Source: Candidatus Pacearchaeota archaeon UBA73 (GTDB lineage Archaea > Nanobdellota > Nanobdellia > Pacearchaeales > GW2011-AR1). From it: a DNA stretch of 64,000 nt. Positions 2,662-62,169 of the stretch are shown one piece after another. Position 1 is the first letter of the stretch. Every line of letters begins with the position of its first letter. A program made the position numbers and the translations under genes. The stretch is from the NCBI GenBank assembly GCA_002496015.1, contig DAIF01000001.1, positions 8,752 through 72,751 on the forward strand, given 5' to 3'. The notes under the pieces were generated by a model. The model made no database searches. It worked only from the letters and a program-made list of their open reading frames with translations, and was not told where the DNA came from.

Positions 2662-4657
2662 TTTTCTCGCTTTTCTTTAACTCAACATCTTTGTCAGCAT
2701 TGTTCACTGATTTCTCTTGCTCGTGAGAGTTTTCATCCTCCTTTACGTTGCCTTCTTTCTTCTCCGCAGCAGTCTCCGACTTTTCTTCCGGTTTTGCAGC
2801 GTCTTTTTTATCCGATTCTTTCTTAGCGTTAGTCTCCCCCCCTTCTTGATGTTCATCTGACAGATTCATTCTATTTGCAAGTTCTTTTATCTTCTCCGCA
2901 AGCTCTTCTTTATTCTTCAAAATATCTTCATTGACATTTTCGCCATAAGTTCTCTTTATGTTGATATAGAGGTTCGCTGCTGCCGAATAATTTCCTTGTT
3001 TCATGAATTCTTTCATCTGCTGGAATTGTACGTAAAGATTGAGAGCCTTCTCTTTCTTTTTCTTTTCAGCATATCTTATGTTCATTAATAAAAATATTAA
3101 ACTGAGGATAAAGATTGATATAAAAACTAAGGAGTATCTTACATAATAATCAAATTTATATTTTGTTCCAACTGTAAAACTATCAGCTCCGATTGCATAG
3201 TCTTTGTCACTGGATATTCTGGCATAAAACATATACTCTCCTATCATCAACTCTTTTGGAACATTTATCGATCTTTCTAACACTATCTCTTTTCCCATGA
3301 CCACTACTTCCTCAAATGAATTGTAAGTATTGCCATTAAAATCCCTCAAGGCATAATAAATCCCCGCCTCATGACTCACTGCGTCTTCATAGTTTGTTAT
3401 TTCTATCGAAGCGCTCACATTCTTTCCAGGCTTTACAAAATCTTCTAAAACCTCAACCACAATTTCATAACTCACATTCACAGGATTAACAAAGACTGCG
3501 ATAGGAATACGTACTTCTTGTGCACTGCTTATTATAAGTTCTCCATAATACTCGCCGGGTTCAAGGTTAATATCTGCCTGTACATCCATAACAATTCTTT
3601 TGGCTTCTTTGCTCGCAAGCGTAAAATTAGTATCACTTAAAAACAGGATTCTCTCTAATCCAGAGATTATTAAATTAAAGCTCAAGCTGTTTGTGCCTTG
3701 ATTAGTAATTTGAAAAACTTTGCTCACACTAAATCCTTGTTTAAGTGAGACAGAAAAGCTAGAAATATCTACAGAAAAATTGTTAGCAGATTCAGTCAGC
3801 GAACCCCTAACATCTTCAAATATTCTTTTTCTGACCCCTGCTGTGCCACTCCCCTCTCCCCCACTTTCCCCGCCAGAGCCACTCCCACCCCCCGAACTGC
3901 TTCCGCCAGAAGAACTTCCTCCCGGCGGGCTTCCGCCAGGTACAATTGGAGGTCTCTCATAAACAGAAAACTGTTTTTCTTCAGTGCAGTTTTCAAAGCC
4001 GACGCGGTCATATCCGCACAGTCTCCAAGTTATGAGACTTCCCGGCGGAACAACTATTTGCTCTGTAAATGAGGAATGGTTGCTTCTTCCAGAGATATTT
4101 TGCGTGTAGTTATGCCACTCGCTATAATTTGAACCAGCCCCTTCTTGTAATATCTCAAACACTACCCTATCCAATTCTCTGTCATCATACCAAATTGAGA
4201 AAAAATTTACAAAATCATTTTGGTAAATTATATTTTTATTGATAGATACATTTGAGTAATAAGGATGCAACAGGTCATCCCCCACATACAAATTAATGAC
4301 ATTGCTCTCAGTGGTATACCTTCCATCGCTTGCTTCTATAATCATCTTCCCGGTTGTATTCATTCCCGGCGGCGCAATAAGTGTTAAAATGCCCTCATCA
4401 GAAATAATAATATCAACGTTAATGTTTGATGTTGCATTGTAAGTCAGAGGATCATCTTCAAAATCAATGAAATAATCGTCTAAATCTAATATGTCTGCAT
4501 AAGTTCCTCCGTCAAATGAAATAAGAGAAATCTCCTTCAAAAGAAACGGTGCAGAGTTGCCCACGATTATGCCTGCTGTAGAATCTTCCGCCCCCAACAT
4601 CGGGGACAGAGCTATCAGGCAAAAAACAGCCAGCCAAAGCAATATACCTCTTCGCAT
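2639..4657 (-). CDS. Surface protein with signal peptide, Gly/Ser-rich linker, single C-terminal TM and K/E-rich cytoplasmic tail
   Basis: 672 aa. N-terminus MRRGILLWLAVFCLIALSPMLGA. Linker PGGSPPGGSSSGGSSSGGGSGSGGESGGEGSG. TM YSLVFISIFILSLIFLLMNI, then a lysine/glutamate-rich tail. Confidence 0.6.
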   Translation of the reverse strand: MRRGILLWLAVFCLIALSPMLGAEDSTAGIIVGNSAPFLLKEISLISFDGGTYADILDLDDYFIDFEDDPLTYNATSNINVDIIISDEGILTLIAPPGMNTTGKMIIEASDGRYTTESNVINLYVGDDLLHPYYSNVSINKNIIYQNDFVNFFSIWYDDRELDRVVFEILQEGAGSNYSEWHNYTQNISGRSNHSSFTEQIVVPPGSLITWRLCGYDRVGFENCTEEKQFSVYERPPIVPGGSPPGGSSSGGSSSGGGSGSGGESGGEGSGTAGVRKRIFEDVRGSLTESANNFSVDISSFSVSLKQGFSVSKVFQITNQGTNSLSFNLIISGLERILFLSDTNFTLASKEAKRIVMDVQADINLEPGEYYGELIISSAQEVRIPIAVFVNPVNVSYEIVVEVLEDFVKPGKNVSASIEITNYEDAVSHEAGIYYALRDFNGNTYNSFEEVVVMGKEIVLERSINVPKELMIGEYMFYARISSDKDYAIGADSFTVGTKYKFDYYVRYSLVFISIFILSLIFLLMNIRYAEKKKKEKALNLYVQFQQMKEFMKQGNYSAAANLYINIKRTYGENVNEDILKNKEELAEKIKELANRMNLSDEHQEGGETNAKKESDKKDAAKPEEKSETAAEKKEGNVKEDENSHEQEKSVNNADKDVELKKSEKIEDKKSD

Positions 4658-9349: not shown

Positions 9350-11122
9350 CTATCTCAACTCGACAGTCAGCGTATAATCCCCTGAAGTGTCTTGCTGATA
9401 AAAATCCTGATCTATGTTCAGAAAATGTGTGCCTTTAACATCTCCCCCATATGGGCCTCCAGCAAGCCAATGTGTGCCAAACCAGGCATAGAGGGGGCTA
9501 GAAGCCTGAGGAGGATAATAAATTATCCTTCCTTCTAAACCGCTGCTTGGTGTCACCGTTACATAGATTTCTGGATTCCCTTCAGAGACAACAAATTTAT
9601 ACCAATCTTGGGTATCTCCCTTTCCTAAAAAGTCATTGATTGTTGCCACCCTGCCAGAAAAACTCAGTGATCTGGCGCAACCCTTAGAGTCATCTGAAGT
9701 ACACCCACTTCCTCCACCAGACCCTCCGCCTCCCCCGCCCGATCCGCCACCACTTCCTCCACCGGAACCGCCTCCCCCACTCCCGCCCCCCGAGCCCCCA
9801 CCTGAACCACCGCCGCCGCCAGATCCCCCGCCAAGTTCATATTCTAACTGTGCAAAATATGCCCGACCATAGAATTCTTCGCTTCCGGGCCATGCCAACG
9901 GCGCATCTCCATAAGTTCTTTCAACGCGAACTTTTCCATTAAACAAATCATCTTTTTCAAATACACTTATCCCTCGCTCAAAAACATGTAACCCTATCTG
10001 CGCAGGAGCCTCAACGACTGCGATCGCGTCCATCCGGTATTGCCTGCCGCCCGCCGAATCAGGAAAACAGTCTGCTCCATACATTTGCCCAGCGACACCA
10101 AAATCCAATCCAACCGACCCGACTTCCACACCGTAAAGGTATAACCTAGCACGCGGACCTACAACTGCAGAAGCGTAAGCCACTCCACCGATACAAAATT
10201 TTGGAGAACTGGTATTAATATTAAACTCTTGTCTGACTATCGGGTCCCACCCCTGTCCCTTCGCGTATCGTGCGCCAAGCTCAGTAAGGGAGGAAGCAGA
10301 GAAGTTTTGCCAGAACCGGCCATCACCAAGCATTTCAGTATAAAAGCGCGCCTCTAAATCAATCGTTGCAGTCACAACAACCGGCAGGTAACCGCCAATT
10401 AATCCATACACCGTTCCTCCCACCTCCTCAATGATAGGAATCTCTTCATAGTTCTGACCTTTGATGAGAAACCGTGAAAAAATATCTGTGTTTAATCCTG
10501 CAAAACCCTCAAAAGACATCTGGAATCTCTCGAGCCCGTGATTCTTGATTTCGAAGTCCAAGTTAAGATCTAACGAGGCATTAAATTCACCTTCAGCTCC
10601 GATGAAGAAAAGATCTTTATCAAGGGCTGCTTTGACACCCACATCCTCCTCCATCCACAAAATAGGAATTCCTGCAGACCTTAAACTTTCTTTATTAGCA
10701 ACAAATTCAAATTTTCCATTATCAACAACCTCCGTCAGAGGGACCGACTCTGTCTCAAGCGTAACTGTTTTCGTAGTGACGTTGGGATATCTGCTGCCCA
10801 CAACCCTACGAAGCGCACCCATCCCACTAGTTACTACGAAAACATCTCCTTCTTTCAAGTCGGTTTTAATATCAAAAAAATATCTAGCTCCATCTTTCCC
10901 ATGATATTCTTCGTCAGCTATTATCTTGACCGGATACCTCGGAGTTTGGACTGGTTCATTATGATTCTCTGCTACGGATGGCTCGCTACCGCCTCGGGAA
11001 TTTTCGGCAGGGGCATTCGGACAACCACTCATGAACATACCACCCAATCCGACAGCCGCAACTGGTAAAAATCTCTTCACGCGAGAAACTGTTCTCTCCA
11101 GAAAACTTGCCCCGTTTCTCAT
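9350..11122 (-). CDS. Secreted (possibly lipoprotein) protein with Gly/Ser linker and C-terminal PPC-like (pre-peptidase C-terminal) domain
   Basis: ORF track gives 9350..11188. Internal Met at 11122 yields a signal-peptide/lipobox-like MRNGASFLERTVSRVKRFLPVAAVGLGGMFMSGC. Linker GGGSGGGGGSGGGSGGG... C-terminus has DTQDWYKFVV..G, typical of PPC domains. Confidence 0.5.
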   Translation of the reverse strand: MRNGASFLERTVSRVKRFLPVAAVGLGGMFMSGCPNAPAENSRGGSEPSVAENHNEPVQTPRYPVKIIADEEYHGKDGARYFFDIKTDLKEGDVFVVTSGMGALRRVVGSRYPNVTTKTVTLETESVPLTEVVDNGKFEFVANKESLRSAGIPILWMEEDVGVKAALDKDLFFIGAEGEFNASLDLNLDFEIKNHGLERFQMSFEGFAGLNTDIFSRFLIKGQNYEEIPIIEEVGGTVYGLIGGYLPVVVTATIDLEARFYTEMLGDGRFWQNFSASSLTELGARYAKGQGWDPIVRQEFNINTSSPKFCIGGVAYASAVVGPRARLYLYGVEVGSVGLDFGVAGQMYGADCFPDSAGGRQYRMDAIAVVEAPAQIGLHVFERGISVFEKDDLFNGKVRVERTYGDAPLAWPGSEEFYGRAYFAQLEYELGGGSGGGGGSGGGSGGGSGGGGSGGGSGGGSGGGGGGSGGGSGCTSDDSKGCARSLSFSGRVATINDFLGKGDTQDWYKFVVSEGNPEIYVTVTPSSGLEGRIIYYPPQASSPLYAWFGTHWLAGGPYGGDVKGTHFLNIDQDFYQQDTSGDYTLTVELR

Positions 11123-11191
11123 AAATAATAAATTAATCCAAAGTATAAATACTTTGTGAACATTTATTAAGAAACTTCCGTTTATCAAAAA

Positions 11192-12865
11192 ATGAAGAAA
11201 AAAATCGCAAACACTCTCTCTAAAGAAACTTCTCTGTCAAATAAAGAAATCGAAGATCTCTTGGAAATTCCTCCCTCTCCCGAACTCGGCGACCTCGCCT
11301 TCCCTTGTTTCTCTCTCGCAAAAACTCTAAAAAAATCCCCTGCGCAAATCGCTGAAGAACTCGCAAAAAAACTTCGCATCAAAGGCACGGAAAAAATCGA
11401 GGCAAAAGGCCCATACGTTAATTTCTTCCTCGACAAATCTCAACTGGCTAAGGAAACAATTAGCGTAATTCTAAGACAAGGGGAAAAGTATGGTTATTCA
11501 AAAGTTTCTAAGGAAAATGTAATGATTGAATTTTCTCAGCCCAACACACATAAAGCATTTCATGTTGGTCACATTCGCGGAACCTCTCTAGGAGAATCTC
11601 TGGCACGAATTATGGAGTCACAAGGCAGTAGGGTTATTCGAGCAAATTACTCAGGCGATACAGGTATGCACATCGCAAAATGGCTTTGGTGCTATCAGAA
11701 ATTCCACTCTAAAGAAAAACTCAGGGACAATGAAGAATGGATAGCTTCTATTTATGTTGATGCTATAAAACGTTTAGCTGAAAAAGAATCTTCGCAAGAA
11801 GAAGTTGATGAAATAAATAGAAAGCTAGAATCGCGAGAAGACAAAAAACTCAACGAGTTATGGAAAAAAACCAGAATCGCTTCAATCAATTCTTGGAAAA
11901 AAATTTACAAGGAACTCAACACAAAGTTCGATGTCCACTATTTCGAGAGCGAAGTCGAGCAACCCGCAAAAAACTTCGCAAAAATGCTCCTGACAAAAAA
12001 AATAGCAGAAATTTCCGAAGGCGCGACAATAGTTGACTTAAAATCTTATAACTTGGGAGTTTTCCTCCTCTTACGAAAAGATGGCACCGTCCTTTATGGC
12101 GGAAAGGATATGTTTCTCGCAGAAAGGAAATTCAAAGAATTCAATCTGGACAAATCACTTTACGTCATAGGCAGAGAGCAAGACCTTTACATTCATCAGG
12201 TTTTCAAAACTCTTGAACTCATCAAATCGCCCGCAGCAGGCAAGAGTTTCTACGTTCCCGTTTCAGAAGTCAGACTTCCGTGGGGAAAAATGTCATCAAG
12301 AACAGGAGATAACGTTCTTTATTCTTCGTTTAAACAGGAACTTGTCAAATTGGCAAAATCAAAACTTGAGGAAAGACAAAAACTTCCGCCCAAAGAATTG
12401 GAAAGTCGCGCGCTCAAAATAGCCGTCGCCACAATGAAATATACTATGCTTAAACAAGATATAAACAAAAACATTATTTTTGATAAAGAAGAAGCAACAA
12501 GTTTCGAAGGCAACACCGGCCCGTACTTACTTTACACTTACGCTCGCGCAAAATCAATCCTAAGGAAAGCAAAATACAAAAAAGCAAACTTCAAAATCCC
12601 TCAGCTTTCAGATGAGGAAAAACAACTAATCCTCTCACTCTCCAAATTCCCAGAGGAAGTAAAAAAAGCACACGATTCCCTCGCACCGAACATCGTAGCA
12701 ACCTATGCTTATCAACTAGCTCAGCAGTTCAACGAATTTTACCACAAAACTAAAATCCTAGGTTCAGAAAACGAGCAGTTCGGTCTTACGTTAGTTGACG
12801 CTTTTTCTCAAACCCTAAGAAACTCCCTAAATCTCCTCGGAATCGAAGTCCTCGAAACGATGTAA
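11192..12865 (+). CDS. argS: Arginine--tRNA ligase
   Basis: 557 aa. Class-I HIGH region (PNTHKAFHVGHIRGTSLGE) and overall ArgRS layout, with a C-terminal DALR-like anticodon-binding region. Confidence 0.8.
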   Translation: MKKKIANTLSKETSLSNKEIEDLLEIPPSPELGDLAFPCFSLAKTLKKSPAQIAEELAKKLRIKGTEKIEAKGPYVNFFLDKSQLAKETISVILRQGEKYGYSKVSKENVMIEFSQPNTHKAFHVGHIRGTSLGESLARIMESQGSRVIRANYSGDTGMHIAKWLWCYQKFHSKEKLRDNEEWIASIYVDAIKRLAEKESSQEEVDEINRKLESREDKKLNELWKKTRIASINSWKKIYKELNTKFDVHYFESEVEQPAKNFAKMLLTKKIAEISEGATIVDLKSYNLGVFLLLRKDGTVLYGGKDMFLAERKFKEFNLDKSLYVIGREQDLYIHQVFKTLELIKSPAAGKSFYVPVSEVRLPWGKMSSRTGDNVLYSSFKQELVKLAKSKLEERQKLPPKELESRALKIAVATMKYTMLKQDINKNIIFDKEEATSFEGNTGPYLLYTYARAKSILRKAKYKKANFKIPQLSDEEKQLILSLSKFPEEVKKAHDSLAPNIVATYAYQLAQQFNEFYHKTKILGSENEQFGLTLVDAFSQTLRNSLNLLGIEVLETM

Positions 12866-12909: not shown

Positions 12910-13065
12910 ATGGTGTTAGAGGTGTTGCTGCTTCTGAGTAGCTTTCTCTTGTTAGTAATGCTAGTCTTACTTCTAGTCGCATCGAGAAAAGAACCTTCTT
13001 CAAAAAAACGCCGATTCAAAATCAAAGACGATATCAAAAAGATTAAAGAGCAGATTTTGAATTGA
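12910..13065 (+). CDS. Small single-TM protein (51 aa); its 3' coding end is duplicated downstream
   Basis: MVLEVLLLLSSFLLLVMLVLLLVASRKEPSSKKRRFKIKDDIKKIKEQILN. Below the ORF-track cutoff, found by manual translation. Its last ~50 nt recur at 13647..13697. Confidence 0.35.
   Translation: MVLEVLLLLSSFLLLVMLVLLLVASRKEPSSKKRRFKIKDDIKKIKEQILN
13015..13065 (+). repeat. Direct repeat copy 1 (ttcaaaatcaaagacgatatcaaaaagat...)
   Basis: A 29-nt identical core plus flanking similarity with copy 2 at 13647..13697. Both copies encode ..KIKDDIKKIKEQI(L/V)N-stop in frame. Confidence 0.7.
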
Positions 13066-13105
13066 TTATAGAAAAATCTAAAATAAAACTCGCCCTACCA
13101 AATTA

Positions 13106-13372
13106 ATGAGTTATGTGCTAACAACTCTAAATAGCAAAACGGAAAAAAGACTATCGGAATATATTTCTCTAAGGGAAGACGTAAGGGAAAAATTAGACAA
13201 ACTAAAGGAAAACCCAAGAAGAACCAACGGTGCTCACCCTCTTCACGGCAAGCTTCAGGGAAAATGGTCTTGCTGGCTCGGCTCAAACATTCATCTGATT
13301 TACACAATAGACGACAAAGAAAAAACAATTTTAATCTGCGCGGTCGGCAGCCACAAATTTACTAATACTTAA
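13106..13372 (+). CDS. RelE/ParE-family toxin (type II TA)
   Basis: 88 aa. C-terminal LHGKLQGKWSCWLGSNIHLIYTIDDKEKTILICAVGSHK matches the RelE/ParE pattern (L.G.L.G....R.G.YRIIY.ID....V.I..IGHR). Confidence 0.6.
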   Translation: MSYVLTTLNSKTEKRLSEYISLREDVREKLDKLKENPRRTNGAHPLHGKLQGKWSCWLGSNIHLIYTIDDKEKTILICAVGSHKFTNT

Positions 13373-13607
13373 ATTCTTTAGGTTTCGTGCCTTTCTTTAA
13401 ATTTCTCTCAGTTGTTTTTATCTGCGACATCATGTCTACATCTTCAATAATCTCCTTTTCCTCAAGTTTCCTTATCTTATCTCGTATCGCCTCGCGAATA
13501 AACTCCGTCTTCGTCATGTAATTGTGTTTCTTCATAACTTTGTTTATCGCATTCATGAAGTTTTCTTCAATTTTCAAGCTTACGTTTTCCATATTACTCT
13601 GTAGCAC
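13362..13607 (-). CDS. Ribbon-helix-helix (CopG/antitoxin-like) DNA-binding protein
   Basis: 81 aa. MTKTEFIREAIRDKIRKLEE is an RHH-type beta-strand/helix signature. Convergent with the RelE gene and overlapping its 3' end by 11 nt. Confidence 0.5.
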   Translation of the reverse strand: MLQSNMENVSLKIEENFMNAINKVMKKHNYMTKTEFIREAIRDKIRKLEEKEIIEDVDMMSQIKTTERNLKKGTKPKEFKY

Positions 13608-13646
13608 TATGTGCTATTTAAATTTTGCCCAGATGCCCGGATTCGT

Positions 13647-13697
13647 TCAAAATCAAAGACGATATCAAAAAGATAAAGGAACAAATTGTTAATTAAC
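13647..13697 (+). repeat. Direct repeat copy 2 (duplicated 3' end of the small-protein gene)
   Basis: ttcaaaatcaaagacgatatcaaaaagat identical to 13015..13043; continues with in-frame similarity to the stop codon; no ATG-initiated ORF. Confidence 0.7.
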
Positions 13698-13751
13698 TAT
13701 TTAGTATTACAAAACTACAAAGTTTAAAAACTCCGACTTCCCAAAAAAACT

Positions 13752-14537
13752 ATGGCAAAAACAATCAAGGCCCAAGTAATCGTTGAACAACCAACCGTAG
13801 AATTTCCCGTAATCGAACACGAAGGAAGAGACCACGGTTTCAAATTATTTGGTCCCAAGACATACGAAGCAAATGTGGAAGAAATGCAAAGAACCAAATA
13901 TCGCTCTGCCAAATTCCCCGAAATCGCGCTCGCACCAGCAACAATTTCTCAATCTATTTCACTAGCGGTAGACAATCCAACTAAAACAAAATCGAAAACT
14001 CTCGATCTACTAGTGCTTCTTTTAGGGCCATATGTCCGAGCGTCAGAAGGAGTCTTCCTAAATCCTCCTAGAGACCTAAACGGCGAGATAGTTAAAGATG
14101 AAAGAACTCTCTATTCATTCTTAACAGGAACAGAAAGAGTCAACGGCATTTATGTTGTCAGAAACTCTGGTGTATTAAAGGATTTCGCCTTCGTTCCCGC
14201 AGACACTTATTTGCTTAAATTTCAAGAGCACGAGAAATTCTTAGAAGGCGGTCTTGCTAGGGGATTTGAACACGCGAACGGCCCAGTTAAAAGATTGCCT
14301 CTAATTGCTAACAGCAATTTTTATCCTAGCGGAGTTTACGTTTCTGAAGCATTTAAGTCAACAGGTCAATTTGGAAAAACAGAAATCAAGGTTGCCGGCT
14401 TGGCCTCCGGCTGGGGCAATGTCGGCTACAGGTTGAGCGTCGGCGGCGACAACTTCTACGGCTTCGACGGCTTCGACGGCTACGGCGGCTGTGCTTTTGG
14501 GGTGTTCGATGCTAGCGAAACAAAAAAAGACAATTAA
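13752..14537 (+). CDS. Hypothetical protein with Gly/Phe/Asp/Tyr-rich C-terminus
   Basis: 261 aa, no recognisable catalytic motif. C-terminus GWGNVGYRLSVGGDNFYGFDGFDGYGGCAFGVFD. Confidence 0.4.
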   Translation: MAKTIKAQVIVEQPTVEFPVIEHEGRDHGFKLFGPKTYEANVEEMQRTKYRSAKFPEIALAPATISQSISLAVDNPTKTKSKTLDLLVLLLGPYVRASEGVFLNPPRDLNGEIVKDERTLYSFLTGTERVNGIYVVRNSGVLKDFAFVPADTYLLKFQEHEKFLEGGLARGFEHANGPVKRLPLIANSNFYPSGVYVSEAFKSTGQFGKTEIKVAGLASGWGNVGYRLSVGGDNFYGFDGFDGYGGCAFGVFDASETKKDN

Positions 14538-14569: not shown

Positions 14570-14832
14570 CCGGTGCGGACGAGTCTGCGCGCTAGCCCCG
14601 CGCAATTCACAAACGGGCTTCATGGTGGACTTAAAGGAACGCGTGACGCAAAGAACGCGAAGTCTTGCCTCTAACGTTGAGGTTTTGTCCTGCTCGACCG
14701 TACTCTTGCGAACCGGGTCAGGCCTTGATCGGAGCAGCCCTAAGTGGGAAGTATGGTGCTTGTAGGGTAGCAAAGCTGAGGAAGTCGCAAGGTCGCTTCA
14801 CGCTCAATGCCGGGCCAGTTCCCCGCCGCACC
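14570..14832 (+). ncRNA. Signal recognition particle RNA (7S/SRP RNA), candidate
   Basis: A ~260-nt GC-rich island in an AT-rich genome. 5' end CCGGUGCGG pairs with 3' end CCGCCGCACC. Contains the helix-8-like motif GGGUCAGGCC...GGAGCAGCC (compare bacterial/archaeal GGUCAGGNCC-GGAA-GGNAGCAGCC). A TATA-like cttaaata sits ~25 nt upstream. Overlapping ORFs 14564..14773 and 14665..14910 are taken as spurious. Confidence 0.6.
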
Positions 14833-60777: not shown

Positions 60778-60962
60778 TGGTTTCAAAAGGATTTGCTTGG
60801 GAATGTGAATGTGGAAACATCGAATACGGATCATATCCTCCGGAAGAATGCTCGCAATGCGCCGCAGTTGACAGCTTCATAAAAGTTCCGGAAGACGAAA
60901 TTGCTGAGAGGGAAGAGGAAAACGTCTTGGCAAAAAGACCTTTGGAGGAAGAAGATGATTAA
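60777..60962 (+). CDS. Small Zn-ribbon protein (61 aa) encoded between rpl30 and rpl15
   Basis: WECECGNIEYG...CSQC followed by an acidic tail. Starts at the rpl30 stop; overlaps rpl15 start by 8 nt. Confidence 0.4.
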   Translation: MVSKGFAWECECGNIEYGSYPPEECSQCAAVDSFIKVPEDEIAEREEENVLAKRPLEEEDD

Positions 60963-61350
60963 GAAAAGAACGAAAAGGTCGCGGTTTAGGGGAACCCACA
61001 CTCACGGTAGAGGATTCAAGAAGAAAGCTCGTGGTTCTGGTCATCGTGGCGGAGTCGGAAGGGCGGGCAGCGGCAAAAAAGCCGATCAGAAAAAAGATCT
61101 GATTAATTTTCCATTTGGAAAAGACAAAGCCCTAAGAAGAAAGCCCAAGATAAAGCTAAATACCATAAATCTCTCGCAGATATCGGAAAAGTTCGCGGGG
61201 CAAAAAGAAGTAAAACTTCAGGGTTATAAAATTCTAAGCAACGGGGACATAAAGGAGAAAATGACAATTTACGCAGACGCTGCATCAGAATCCGCAATAG
61301 GTAAAATTAAAAAAGCCGGCGGAGATATTGTTTTAACTAACAAGAAGTAA
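60955..61350 (+). CDS. rpl15: 50S ribosomal protein L15 (uL15)
   Basis: Start refined to MIKKRTKRSRFRGTHTHGRGFKKKARGSGHRGG. Confidence 0.85.
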   Translation: MIKKRTKRSRFRGTHTHGRGFKKKARGSGHRGGVGRAGSGKKADQKKDLINFPFGKDKALRRKPKIKLNTINLSQISEKFAGQKEVKLQGYKILSNGDIKEKMTIYADAASESAIGKIKKAGGDIVLTNKK

Positions 61351-61392: not shown

Positions 61393-62169
61393 ATGAAACA
61401 AATCAATCAAAGAATAGCAGAAACTGGAATTTTTGTATTTAGTTATGACCCCCAAACTAGAAAGTTCACATATTCGCGTCCTTTCACGACAAAAGAAGCA
61501 AAAGACTTAGCTGAACAAACCAATGCAACAATTAATTCTCAATATAAAGGTGTTAAGGGTCTAAGAAAAGGTCTTGCAGCTAAAAATGGCAAATTAGTTA
61601 ATATGAGTACGCTTAAAGGAATCGTCGCAAATAGGGTTCTTATGCAATCTACAAATGCCCAACAATGGTTGCCGACAATTCAAGAAGGAATCACCTTACA
61701 AAGAGCGGGAATGTTTCCTTCAGGAATTTTGATTGATATAGGTATTGCTTTATACAATGAACAAGCCCCCAATAAAGAAATTGCCAAATCTTTAGCTAAT
61801 GAAGGGAGATATGTTTTGCCCGTTTTAGCTTCATTCAAATCTCTTGATTTATCCCTCGGAGGAAAAAGATACGGCGTCACTCCTCGATTAGTTTCGGCGG
61901 ATGGCTTAACCTCTGGAAAAGATGCAACAAAATTAATGCAGGCCAATTCTTTTTATCAAGGAGAAGGTACAGGAGTTCGCGGGGTGTGCCACAGCAACGG
62001 CGACTTCTGGTGTGCCGATTGGAACGACGACTTGGGCTACTTCTACGAGGACTGTCGGGTGGGTCGTTTTTCTGCCAAAGGCAGCGCGCAAAAATTGGAG
62101 GAAGAGGCTTTAGGCGCGTTTGCTCCAATCAGAAAAAGCCTAGATTCGGTTCTTGCTCTGGCACAATAA
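61393..62169 (+). CDS. DGR target (variable) protein; VR lies in its C-terminal region
   Basis: 258 aa. The C-terminal segment VCHSNGDFWCADWNDDLGYFYEDCRVGRF is the protein product of the VR (template-like repeat lies downstream). The CRVGRF ending resembles C-type-lectin/FGE-like DGR variable domains. Confidence 0.65.
   Translation: MKQINQRIAETGIFVFSYDPQTRKFTYSRPFTTKEAKDLAEQTNATINSQYKGVKGLRKGLAAKNGKLVNMSTLKGIVANRVLMQSTNAQQWLPTIQEGITLQRAGMFPSGILIDIGIALYNEQAPNKEIAKSLANEGRYVLPVLASFKSLDLSLGGKRYGVTPRLVSADGLTSGKDATKLMQANSFYQGEGTGVRGVCHSNGDFWCADWNDDLGYFYEDCRVGRFSAKGSAQKLEEEALGAFAPIRKSLDSVLALAQ
61981..62064 (+). repeat. DGR variable repeat (VR)
   Basis: ~80-nt match to TR at 62351..62434; 17 of 20 mismatches are at positions where TR has A. 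Confidence 0.7.

Follow-up and report, generated by a model that had tools for sequence, protein, structure and literature searches.

In T6SS (type VI secretion system) loci and in Rhs loci, displacement of gene ends via homology-facilitated illegitimate recombination was put forward, which leaves orphaned 3′ regions behind (PMC5361080). Direct repeats made of a gene end, next to a gene that stays intact, mark the integrative elements that enter the 3′ ends of tRNA, tmRNA, or protein genes, and small cassettes bracketed by repeats of about 50 nt are found in integrons and in clusters of attC sites lacking integron integrases (CALINs). Here, we analyzed a stretch of 64,000 nt of the Candidatus Pacearchaeota archaeon UBA73 (assembly GCA_002496015.1, contig DAIF01000001.1, positions 8,752 to 72,751; hereafter, the window), in which a RelE-type toxin gene and a convergently oriented gene for a ribbon-helix-helix (RHH) protein lie between two copies of the 3′ end of a small conserved gene that follows argS. 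The bracketing repeats are best filed under event kinds that are already known, displaced or orphaned 3′ ends or attL/attR-like scars, found here in a member of the DPANN archaea and at a housekeeping-like gene. What appears to be new is the consistent convergent layout of the toxin-antitoxin (TA) pair, which otherwise behaves like a type II system.

The locus shares features with each of the described systems and departs from all of them. As in the displacement loci of Rhs, CDI (contact-dependent growth inhibition), and Vibrio cholerae T6SS (PMC5361080), there is a conserved upstream anchor and an orphaned 3′ region shifted downstream, the orphan keeps a conserved stretch and can recombine later, and the protective gene is retained. 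Unlike in those loci, only 16 of 51 codons are orphaned and they come from a nontoxin gene, the insert is a TA pair and not a toxin domain with its immunity gene, the host is a DPANN archaeon, and there is one orphan instead of an array. With the 3′-end integrative elements the locus has in common the direct repeats derived from a gene end, the intact gene, and an identical core that is followed by allelic differences; it differs from them in that no integrase is adjacent in the window or in its relative L076 (ENA ERZ928008, a 60.7-kb contig that is ~72% identical to the window at the nucleotide level), that the insert measures just 0.58 kb, that it appears to be old and vertically inherited, and that its repeats do not have the same edges in the two genomes. 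Integron cassettes and CALINs (PMC9668308) resemble it in being small, in carrying their own promoter (here that of the RHH gene), in TA cargo, and in brackets of ~50 nt, and the cargo next to the module in L076, an acetyltransferase gene, is typical of cassettes. The repeat of the window, however, is coding sequence of a conserved gene without attC structure or consensus boxes, and no integron integrase was found beside the module or among the 27 window ORFs scanned. As for the pair itself, its toxin scores above the family cutoff, has the predicted RelE/YoeB fold, and keeps the C-terminal His, as in RelBE, YefM-YoeB, and DinJ-YafQ (TIGR02385; aRelE-aRelB, 1wmi). Like RelB, ParD, and DinJ, the small partner protein, which is putatively of the RHH type, has a C-terminal extension of ~30 residues; a putative palindromic operator lies at the antitoxin promoter, and in degenerating pairs it is the toxin that decays first. 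Unlike the RelBE-type systems, the two genes are convergent with an 11-nt overlap of their 3′ ends and do not form an antitoxin-first operon, the putative antitoxin gene is monocistronic and of the leaderless type, the toxin gene has no conserved promoter, and the toxin of the window carries a His at position 63.

Table 1. Features of the argS-SRP RNA region in the window (positions count from the first letter of the window)
Feature	Position	Strand	Remarks
argS (arginyl-tRNA synthetase)	11192..12865	+	Pfam tRNA-synt_1d/DALR_1/Arg_tRNA_synt_N; conserved left neighbour
Small conserved gene, intact	12910..13065	+	51 aa; N-terminal transmembrane helix, C-terminal K(I/V)KDD(I/L)KKIKEQI motif
Repeat copy 1	13015..13069	+	small-gene 3′ end (functional): 16 codons, TGA, and 4 nt
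Left spacer	13070..13105	+	TATA-like TCTAAAATAAAA (13077-13088), ~24 nt before the RelE ATG
RelE/StbE-family toxin gene (predicted)	13106..13372	+	88 aa; NCBIfam TIGR02385, RelE/YoeB fold
RHH gene, putative antitoxin/autorepressor	13362..13592	-	76 aa; CopG/Arc/MetJ-type
RHH promoter/operator (putative)	13602..13623	-	palindrome TAGCAC-TAT-GTGCTA, 13602-13616; TATA box ATTTAAAT 13616-13623
Right spacer and right junction	13624..13645	.	TTGCC common to L076; rest lineage-specific
Repeat copy 2	13646..13700	+	orphan small-gene 3′ fragment encoding FKIKDDIKKIKEQIVN-stop; stop at 13694-13696
p261, variable cargo gene	13752..14537	+	between copy 2 and the SRP RNA gene
Signal recognition particle (SRP) RNA gene	14572..14832	+	Rfam RF01857, 79.7 bits, E=2.4e-17; conserved right neighbour

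That the end of the small gene, stop codon included, recurs downstream with an identical core of 29 nt had been noted in the initial annotation of the window, and a repeat search bore this out, with coordinates that shift by 1 to 3 nt (Table 1). The two copies are 55 nt long and 85% identical at a spacing of 631 nt, and the core (13015-13043 and 13646-13674) is exact. Their local alignment score is 70, compared with a shuffle maximum of 28. The core occurs only these two times in the window, even if 3 mismatches are allowed, with 0 occurrences expected in 100 shuffles. When contigs were scanned with a degenerate pattern of the encoded peptide, each locus contained it a single time and always just 3′ of argS, in 7 metagenome contigs and 0 viral contigs. 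The repeat is thus not a dispersed motif, and no relative turned up in which both copies are present without genes in between. Copy 2 lacks the part that encodes the transmembrane helix, since the 5′ two-thirds of the gene are missing, and an in-frame stop lies upstream of it at 13619-13621. Between the copies lie 576 bp with exactly two genes, the RelE-type gene on the forward strand and the RHH gene on the reverse strand, as had been described for an interval of ~580 bp. Copy 1, and not copy 2, contains a perfect inverted repeat of 10 bp, ATTCAAAATC…GATTTTGAAT (13014-13023 and 13053-13062), which is also present in another genome of the clade, L046. Its fold is hardly better than expected (z=-1.9; 10 of 200 shuffles fold equally well), and it may be a product of chance.

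The pattern of differences between the copies argues for two alleles of one gene. All 8 differences fall into the last 26 of the 55 nt and none into the 29 nt of the core (P=0.0013). The seven that lie in the coding tail amount to four synonymous third-position changes, one Leu→Val replacement, and a change of the stop codon from TGA to TAA; if 7 substitutions fell at random, the stop would be spared and no more than one residue altered with P~1e-4. Copy 1 ends in the consensus tail of the clade, and the 21 nt that precede its stop are the same in L046; the tail of copy 2 (ATA AAG GAA CAA ATT GTT AAT TAA) is unique among the ten aligned sequences. Because the differences spare the peptide and the stop, the tail of copy 2 would have evolved within a working gene and most likely is a diverged functional allele, and the transition from the identical core to this tail looks like a sharp recombination boundary. 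The same pattern bears on the proposal that an insertion had simply duplicated its target. An ordinary target-site duplication, in which the copies were identical at first and copy 2 then decayed neutrally, would explain why direct repeats immediately flank a small insert, but we rejected it because the differences are clustered and preserve the peptide. In addition, the arrangement is old and common to L076 and the copies are nevertheless still similar, and the known target duplications made by transposases are far shorter than 55 nt. We regard it as very improbable. The other option that had been raised, a module generated by recombination, fits better, as it joins two functional alleles.

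Comparison with other genomes revealed what the site looks like without the module. The closest argS relatives of the window (66-69% identical amino acids) belong to metagenome-assembled genomes (MAGs) of Nanoarchaeota, Woesearchaeota, and Pacearchaeota. Together with pilins of the archaeal type and an archaeal SRP RNA, these relatives assign the window to a DPANN archaeon. The small gene has no match to a Pfam or NCBIfam family, yet orthologues of 50-60 aa, with a hydrophobic N-terminal helix and the C-terminal motif of Table 1, are found directly 3′ of argS in nine other loci (L041, L002/L043, L012/L047, L042, L044, L045, L046, L048, and L076). The gene for a small transmembrane protein, as it had been called, is therefore real, and the 51-aa open reading frame (ORF) is, to judge from this conservation, a genuine gene. 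Empty sites that carry a single copy of the repeat, the comparison proposed at the outset, were found in L042 and L002/L043, where the SRP RNA gene begins 32-43 nt past the one 3′ end. A single 3′-end copy is also present in L041, L044, L046, L047, and L048, with other cargo or none. What follows the stop codon of the small gene is an AbrB-like and RelE-like pair in L045, more than 3 kb including a transposase-like gene in L044, a gene with a metallo-beta-lactamase (MBL) fold in L046, a reverse-strand gene of 126 aa in L012/L047, an ORF of 96 aa in L048, and 477 nt without a clear gene in L041. Because the content directly after the stop differs in every nonempty genome, the site 3′ of the small gene is a hotspot of insertion or exchange. 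In none of the eight loci L041 to L048 did a second, diverged 3′-end copy score above shuffles. The pair of L045 (reverse strand, ~3375-3898) consists of a 90-aa AbrB/SpoVT-like and an 82-aa RelE/ParE-like protein, whose genes are co-directional and begin right behind the stop of the small gene; past them, 114 nt remain before the contig ends. This TA-like pair is an independent arrival at the same hotspot.

Only L076 has the architecture of the window. Its order is argS, small gene (51 aa), RelE, RHH, and an orphan fragment (…TKDDIKKIKEQIMN-stop), after which come a hairpin element, an acetyltransferase gene on the reverse strand, the SRP RNA gene, pilin genes, and Mre11. The two genomes are colinear from argS to the stop codon of copy 2 with 72% identity. 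The genes of the module (RelE, 72%; RHH, 79% identical nucleotides) have diverged as much as the flanks (3′ end of argS, 74%; small gene, 68%; pilins, 66-70%), and homology is also seen in the spacers at the junctions. For these two reasons, a single old event that was inherited by both lineages appears to be the simplest reading. In the left spacer, ATAGAAAAATCTAAAAT is kept in L076 (spacer identity, 77.5%) and is absent from the other contexts of the module, which suggests that this spacer travels with the module in the lineage of the window and L076. At the right junction (13645/13646), the left side shows no homology except for a possible similarity of CCGGATTC and GCCGATTC with an indel of 4 nt.

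The repeats have apparently not evolved independently since. In L076, the copies are 98% identical over 41 nt, and at 3 synonymous sites the copies agree within each genome and differ between the genomes (GAC GAT ATC AAA in the window; GAT GAC ATC AAG in L076). Because these sites match within and not between genomes, we infer concerted evolution, that is, the repeats seem to be still exchanging sequence. The homology between the window and L076 halts exactly at the stop of copy 2 (13694) and resumes at the SRP RNA gene (95.8%); in between, the window has p261 and L076 has the hairpin element and the acetyltransferase gene. This gap in homology places the start of the variable segment after copy 2 in genomes that bear the module; in genomes free of the module, it starts after the stop of the small gene. 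The existence of L076 also argues against a trivial explanation, in which strain variants were fused into a chimera at the 29-mer that they share. The source is a MAG and the repeat is about as long as an assembler k-mer, but to the left of the right junction there is no k-mer in common with the small gene, the diverged L076 comes from an independent study, and a separate assembly of another read set (L001, a Logan contig of SRR5037222) carries the region identically and in the same arrangement. An artefact of assembly is, hence, barely conceivable.

The explanation that we favor, with moderate confidence, is a recombination-mediated insertion, or 3′-end displacement, at the hotspot, with the module being kept by addiction. 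In our model, a self-contained RelE/RHH addiction module of ~0.53 kb was placed between two alleles of one gene end. The incoming DNA would have carried the module together with a small-gene 3′ end, or adjacent to one, and would have recombined at the small gene, on one side by homology in argS or the small gene, with argS as the likely left homologous anchor, and on the other side by an illegitimate joint just upstream of resident codon 36. This would be a case of homology-facilitated illegitimate recombination as in 3′-end displacement; a single crossover of the Campbell type would give an equivalent product. The small gene would stay intact and a second 3′ end would be left downstream. The event would predate the split of the window lineage and L076 and would have been followed by gene conversion between the repeats. 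Copy 2 could then serve as the left and the SRP RNA gene as the right homologous anchor for swaps of cargo, such as p261 for the acetyltransferase gene, and the tail of copy 2 in the window might be either the old resident end or an import that came together with p261. The module would persist because the RelE mRNA interferase would be set free once the labile RHH antitoxin is lost. The RHH gene would be expressed from its own leaderless promoter, which its product probably represses through the palindromic operator, and RelE would need either a local promoter or transcripts that read through from argS and the small gene.

Consistent with a displacement, the orphan 3′ fragment carries a diverged allele and lies downstream of the module, and the upstream anchor bears the marks of homologous exchange. 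In a sliding-window analysis of identity, ArgRS of the window is a mosaic: residues 1-90 and ~450-557 are nearest to L076, L047, and L041 (63-83% identical amino acids), whereas the catalytic core (~100-400) is nearest to L002 and L044 (71-86%) and shares just 26-40% identity with the L076 group; the breakpoints lie near residues ~100 and ~400-450. Diverged argS alleles thus appear to have been exchanged by homologous recombination right next to the repeat locus. A tie between this mosaic and the insertion of the module itself may exist as a possible link only.

Several points weigh against the displacement model. No donor or relative was found in which a small gene ending in …EQIVN-stop is followed by p261, so that either tail may be the native one. 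The architecture is present in two genomes only, and L041 (complete) and L044 (3 kb) are occupied at this site yet have no second copy, so that duplication is not general here. The perfect core of 29 nt would also fit the core of a site-specific recombinase, and the survival of the reading frame of copy 2 in two diverged lineages could reflect selection and not mere conversion. Neutralization of RelE by the RHH protein is putative, and with a His in place of the near-invariant Arg63 of RelE, present-day addiction may be weak.

The first of these alternatives is the site-specific integration of a circle of ~0.63 kb, consisting of the module and an attP site that mimics the 3′ end of the small gene, by a tyrosine or serine recombinase acting in trans. 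The repeats would be attL and attR, the 29-nt identity the crossover core, and repeated excision and reinsertion would be possible. The anatomy agrees with this idea in several respects: the direct repeats derive from a gene 3′ end and the gene is restored, as for attL and attR, the exact core is followed by allelic tails, the units have similar lengths (window, 631; L076, 628; L049, 654 nt), the module of L049 is likewise bracketed by direct repeats, of ~43 nt, and repeated excision and reintegration would yield homogeneous repeats within a genome. However, no recombinase was found in or beside the module in 5 contexts or among 27 scanned ORFs of the window, a scan that was not exhaustive, and the 576-bp insert encodes nothing but RelE and RHH. 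Furthermore, the modules of L057 and L064 lack comparable bracketing repeats, the repeat has another left edge in the window than in L076, and nothing points to recent mobility, since the divergence of the module matches that of its flanks. Neither viral nor plasmid copies were found: searches of IMG/VR with the RelE profile and the peptide pattern gave no confirmed match, and tblastn against plasmids gave no match. The GC content of RelE, RHH, and p261, overall and at third codon positions (GC3), is within the range of the window, and there is no compositional sign of a recent transfer of these genes. We consider site-specific integration unlikely.

An integron-type cassette is a much weaker candidate. 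In that case, the module would be a TA cassette and the repeats would correspond to attC-like sites, of the kind known from bacterial and archaeal integrons and from CALINs. Archaeal integrons are indeed known, including in Nanoarchaeota, and TA systems and acetyltransferases are the commonest annotated cargo (PMC9668308). The locus of L049 is array-like, with the order repeat, RelE-RHH, repeat, orf109, repeat, and its repeat folds as a hairpin (z=-2.7). In the window, by contrast, the repeat is coding sequence from the 3′ end of a conserved gene and is single at the empty sites, the folds are unremarkable compared with shuffles (copy 2, z=-0.05/+0.34; copy 1, z=-1.6 in addition to the value given above), inspection revealed no R″ or R′ boxes (RYYYAAC/GTTRRRY), the hairpin motif shared by L049, L057, and L076 is absent, and no IntI was found beside the module in any context or among the 27 window ORFs scanned. 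The coding nature of the repeat, the single copy at empty sites, and the lack of an attC-like fold largely rule out an attC or integron cassette for the window, and we give this origin very little credence.

The hairpin element itself (TTAATCC-TAA-GGATTAA…CCCAAC, a unit of ~32 nt) was seen in L049 (2896-2938, 3523-3600, and 4078-4150), in L057 (~1010-1075), in L062 (~1825-1890), and on the reverse strand of L076 (~3845-3900). In L049, the elements bracket RelE/RHH and the neighbouring orf109 between rpl15 and secY; in the L057 family, the element stands to the right of RHH, and the flank changes inside it (L057 versus L062); in L076, it follows copy 2. With its better-than-shuffled fold in L049, it could be a lineage-specific cassette boundary or recombination element. 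The window contains 3 matches with two mismatches, compared with 0.9 expected, and none of them is near the locus.

It is also imaginable that copy 2 is functional and under selection, either as a micro-ORF of 19-23 codons that starts at a conserved TTG (13625 in the window) or as a cis element, a "landing pad" for the exchange of cargo. In both the window and L076, the orphan fragment is in frame with this TTG (in TTGCC), which lies just beyond the TATA box of RHH; the resulting ORFs have 23 codons in the window (13625-13696, LPRCPDSFKIKDDIKKIKEQIVN-stop) and 19 in L076 (reverse strand, ~3767-3823, LPFFITKDDIKKIKEQIMN-stop). The frame and the peptide KDDIKKIKEQI(V/M)N-stop are intact in two lineages that are ~28% diverged in their DNA, the changes in the tail of the window are synonymous or conservative, and the in-frame TTG is present in both genomes, all of which would agree with a function. 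The peptide, however, has no transmembrane segment, conservation is lacking in the stretch from the TTG to KDD (LPRCPDSFKI versus LPFFIT), and the TTG lies upstream of the forward-strand transcription start that is expected from the palindromic TATA box. Since conversion from copy 1 and an imported functional allele would suffice without any selection, a function of copy 2 seems rather improbable to us.

Whatever the route of insertion, displacement being the one that we prefer, the module has recognizable parts. The profile search that had been suggested for the toxin gene gave a score above the family cutoff (TIGR02385, 33.5 bits; cutoff, 27.9); of the Pfam models, ParE_toxin was passed (24.2; cutoff, 23) and YafQ narrowly missed (29; cutoff, 30). 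The AlphaFold2 model (predicted local distance difference test [pLDDT], 91.7; predicted template modelling score [pTM], 0.81) has YoeB (7v6w), Mycobacterium tuberculosis RelE2 (3g5o), Thermus thermophilus RelE (2khe), and Pyrococcus horikoshii aRelE (1wmi) as its top Foldseek matches (template modelling scores of 0.66-0.76, probability 1.00). The gene product is, according to profile and model, a member of the RelE/StbE family with a predicted RelE/YoeB microbial-RNase-like fold, in which two N-terminal helices pack against an antiparallel sheet. In an alignment of 33 sequences that included the window protein, it keeps all 18 family-invariant residues, among them His83. Codon 63 (13292-13294) encodes His in the window only; the remaining 32 of the 33 sequences have Arg63 (in N-I-R-L-I-Y), and the position aligns with the Arg in the "hR-vvY" motif of Staphylococcus aureus YoeB. 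RelE of the window may, thus, be attenuated by the exchange of Arg63 for His.

The partner is less easily classified. The initial annotation had also asked for a profile search of the RHH/CopG assignment, and this was borne out in part: the matches are consistently of the RHH type, but RHH_1 (PF01402) scores 19.8 bits (E=7.7e-4), below its cutoff of 20.5. Weak matches were further obtained to the N-terminal RHH domain of NikR, to aCcr1, and to VapB models. Homologues are named CopG/Arc/MetJ or RHH and are called with 75-76 aa, several of them with PF01402 or PF26688. From these subthreshold but consistent matches and the names of the homologues, we assign the protein to the RHH type. Its AlphaFold2 monomer is of lower quality (pLDDT, 74.9; pTM, 0.38), with the strand modelled as a helix, which is expected for an obligate dimer, and a sequence search of the PDB gave no match. 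An alternative start that would give 81 aa (GTG, 13607) is unlikely, as it lies inside the putative operator.

In all contexts, a TATA box is located 22-31 nt upstream of the RHH ATG, with a palindrome between the two. The position of the palindrome is conserved in 7 contexts, with the consensus TACTAC-TTA-GTAGTA, and the palindrome of the window, TAGCAC-ATA-GTGCTA, departs from it by a symmetric change; the putative operator sequence reads TAGCACATAGTGCTA. From the position of these elements, the RHH mRNA would be leaderless and the gene autorepressed via the palindromic operator. RelE has no conserved promoter; in L057, it begins 3 nt past the upstream gene. Archaeal promoter geometry would put the RelE promoter of the window into the left spacer.

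Homology searches (153 RelE clusters and 542 RHH clusters) revealed that the convergent layout is not peculiar to the window. RelE and the 76-aa RHH protein are encoded next to each other in the window and in 5 further contexts, L076 and the families of L049, L057, L064, and L070. The intact pairs of the L049 family lie between rpl15 and secY; the convergent pair is found directly after an acetyltransferase gene in the L057 family, beside a PRC-domain gene in the L064 family, and beside a VapBC pair in the L070 family. The overlap of the 3′ ends (13362-13372 in the window) recurs in every intact copy of the module, and in every intact copy the genes depart from a canonical co-directional, autoregulated operon, with a conserved promoter and operator for the RHH gene only. 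According to alignments, the DNA homology between contexts begins at about the ATG of RelE and goes no further than the TATA box upstream of RHH. The convergent arrangement had been called atypical, and for type II TA systems in general this stands, but in the RelE/RHH family it is the conserved norm, in at least five unrelated contexts. A limited literature search for convergent protein-protein type II pairs yielded only antisense-RNA cases and type I systems, which does not prove that such pairs are absent.

Where pairs have decayed, it is RelE that is damaged, by stops or a frameshift in the N-terminal part in L070 (2003-2258, in several independent assemblies) and by truncation at the 5′ end to ~55 codons in L080 (3732-3900), and the RHH gene and its promoter are intact. 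Loss of the toxin first is the pattern expected of a toxin and its antidote. Three further close relatives of the RHH protein were considered as additional cases and set aside, all without bracketing repeats: P0122 and P0123 occur in a different context with a VapBC neighbour and a frameshifted RelE, and P0129 is a solo RHH with a truncated RelE.

A bolder claim, that convergent RelE and RHH form a distinct and widespread TA class of DPANN archaea and that, jointly, the 3′ end of the small gene is a selected landing pad, strikes us as doubtful. If it were true, the convergent overlap would couple the toxin to read-through from the host and the antitoxin to an autoregulated leaderless promoter, and control by antisense RNA or transcriptional interference would be possible, in a hybrid logic of type II and type I systems. 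The landing pad, the orphan copy included, would let reduced genomes swap cargo between argS and the SRP RNA gene without an integrase encoded by the element. DPANN archaea have tiny genomes with few recognizable mobile-element genes, and how they gain and retain accessory genes is poorly understood. The locus offers a concrete and datable case, in which a gene end would have served as recombination anchor, a TA module became locked beside it, and the orphan was kept similar by conversion. Current ideas are not overturned by it; what it adds to known mechanisms is a new host group and a new layout of the genes. TA finders that expect co-directional pairs would probably overlook the convergent RelE/RHH family.

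The SRP RNA gene of the window scores below the gathering score of RF01857 (96.5), yet it is as similar to its counterpart in L076 as stated above, and L002/L043, L041, and L042 have equivalent matches in the same syntenic place; it appears to be a divergent SRP RNA of the DPANN type. The cargo gene p261 has no match in Pfam or NCBIfam, and its only 8 homologues, the closest of which is 59% identical, are all in unrelated contexts, where no trace of a small-gene tail (…IVN-stop), of the repeat, or of the spacers was found. Upstream of argS, on the reverse strand (9350-11188), the window encodes a secreted-looking protein of 612 aa with a long low-complexity linker of Gly and Ser (GGGSGGGGGSGGGSGGGS…), which shares only ~30% identity with the proteins encoded at this position in L012 and L041. 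Far from the locus, the segment 61393-63351 lies directly after rpl15 (60901..61350) in a ribosomal-protein operon. It contains an ORF of 258 aa at 61393, which has no Pfam match and is unrelated to p261, and an apparently short ORF of 299 aa with a match to reverse transcriptases (RVT_1, 34 bits; YVDD motif). The junction of rpl15 and secY, at which L049 carries its RelE/RHH module, may be a second insertion hotspot.

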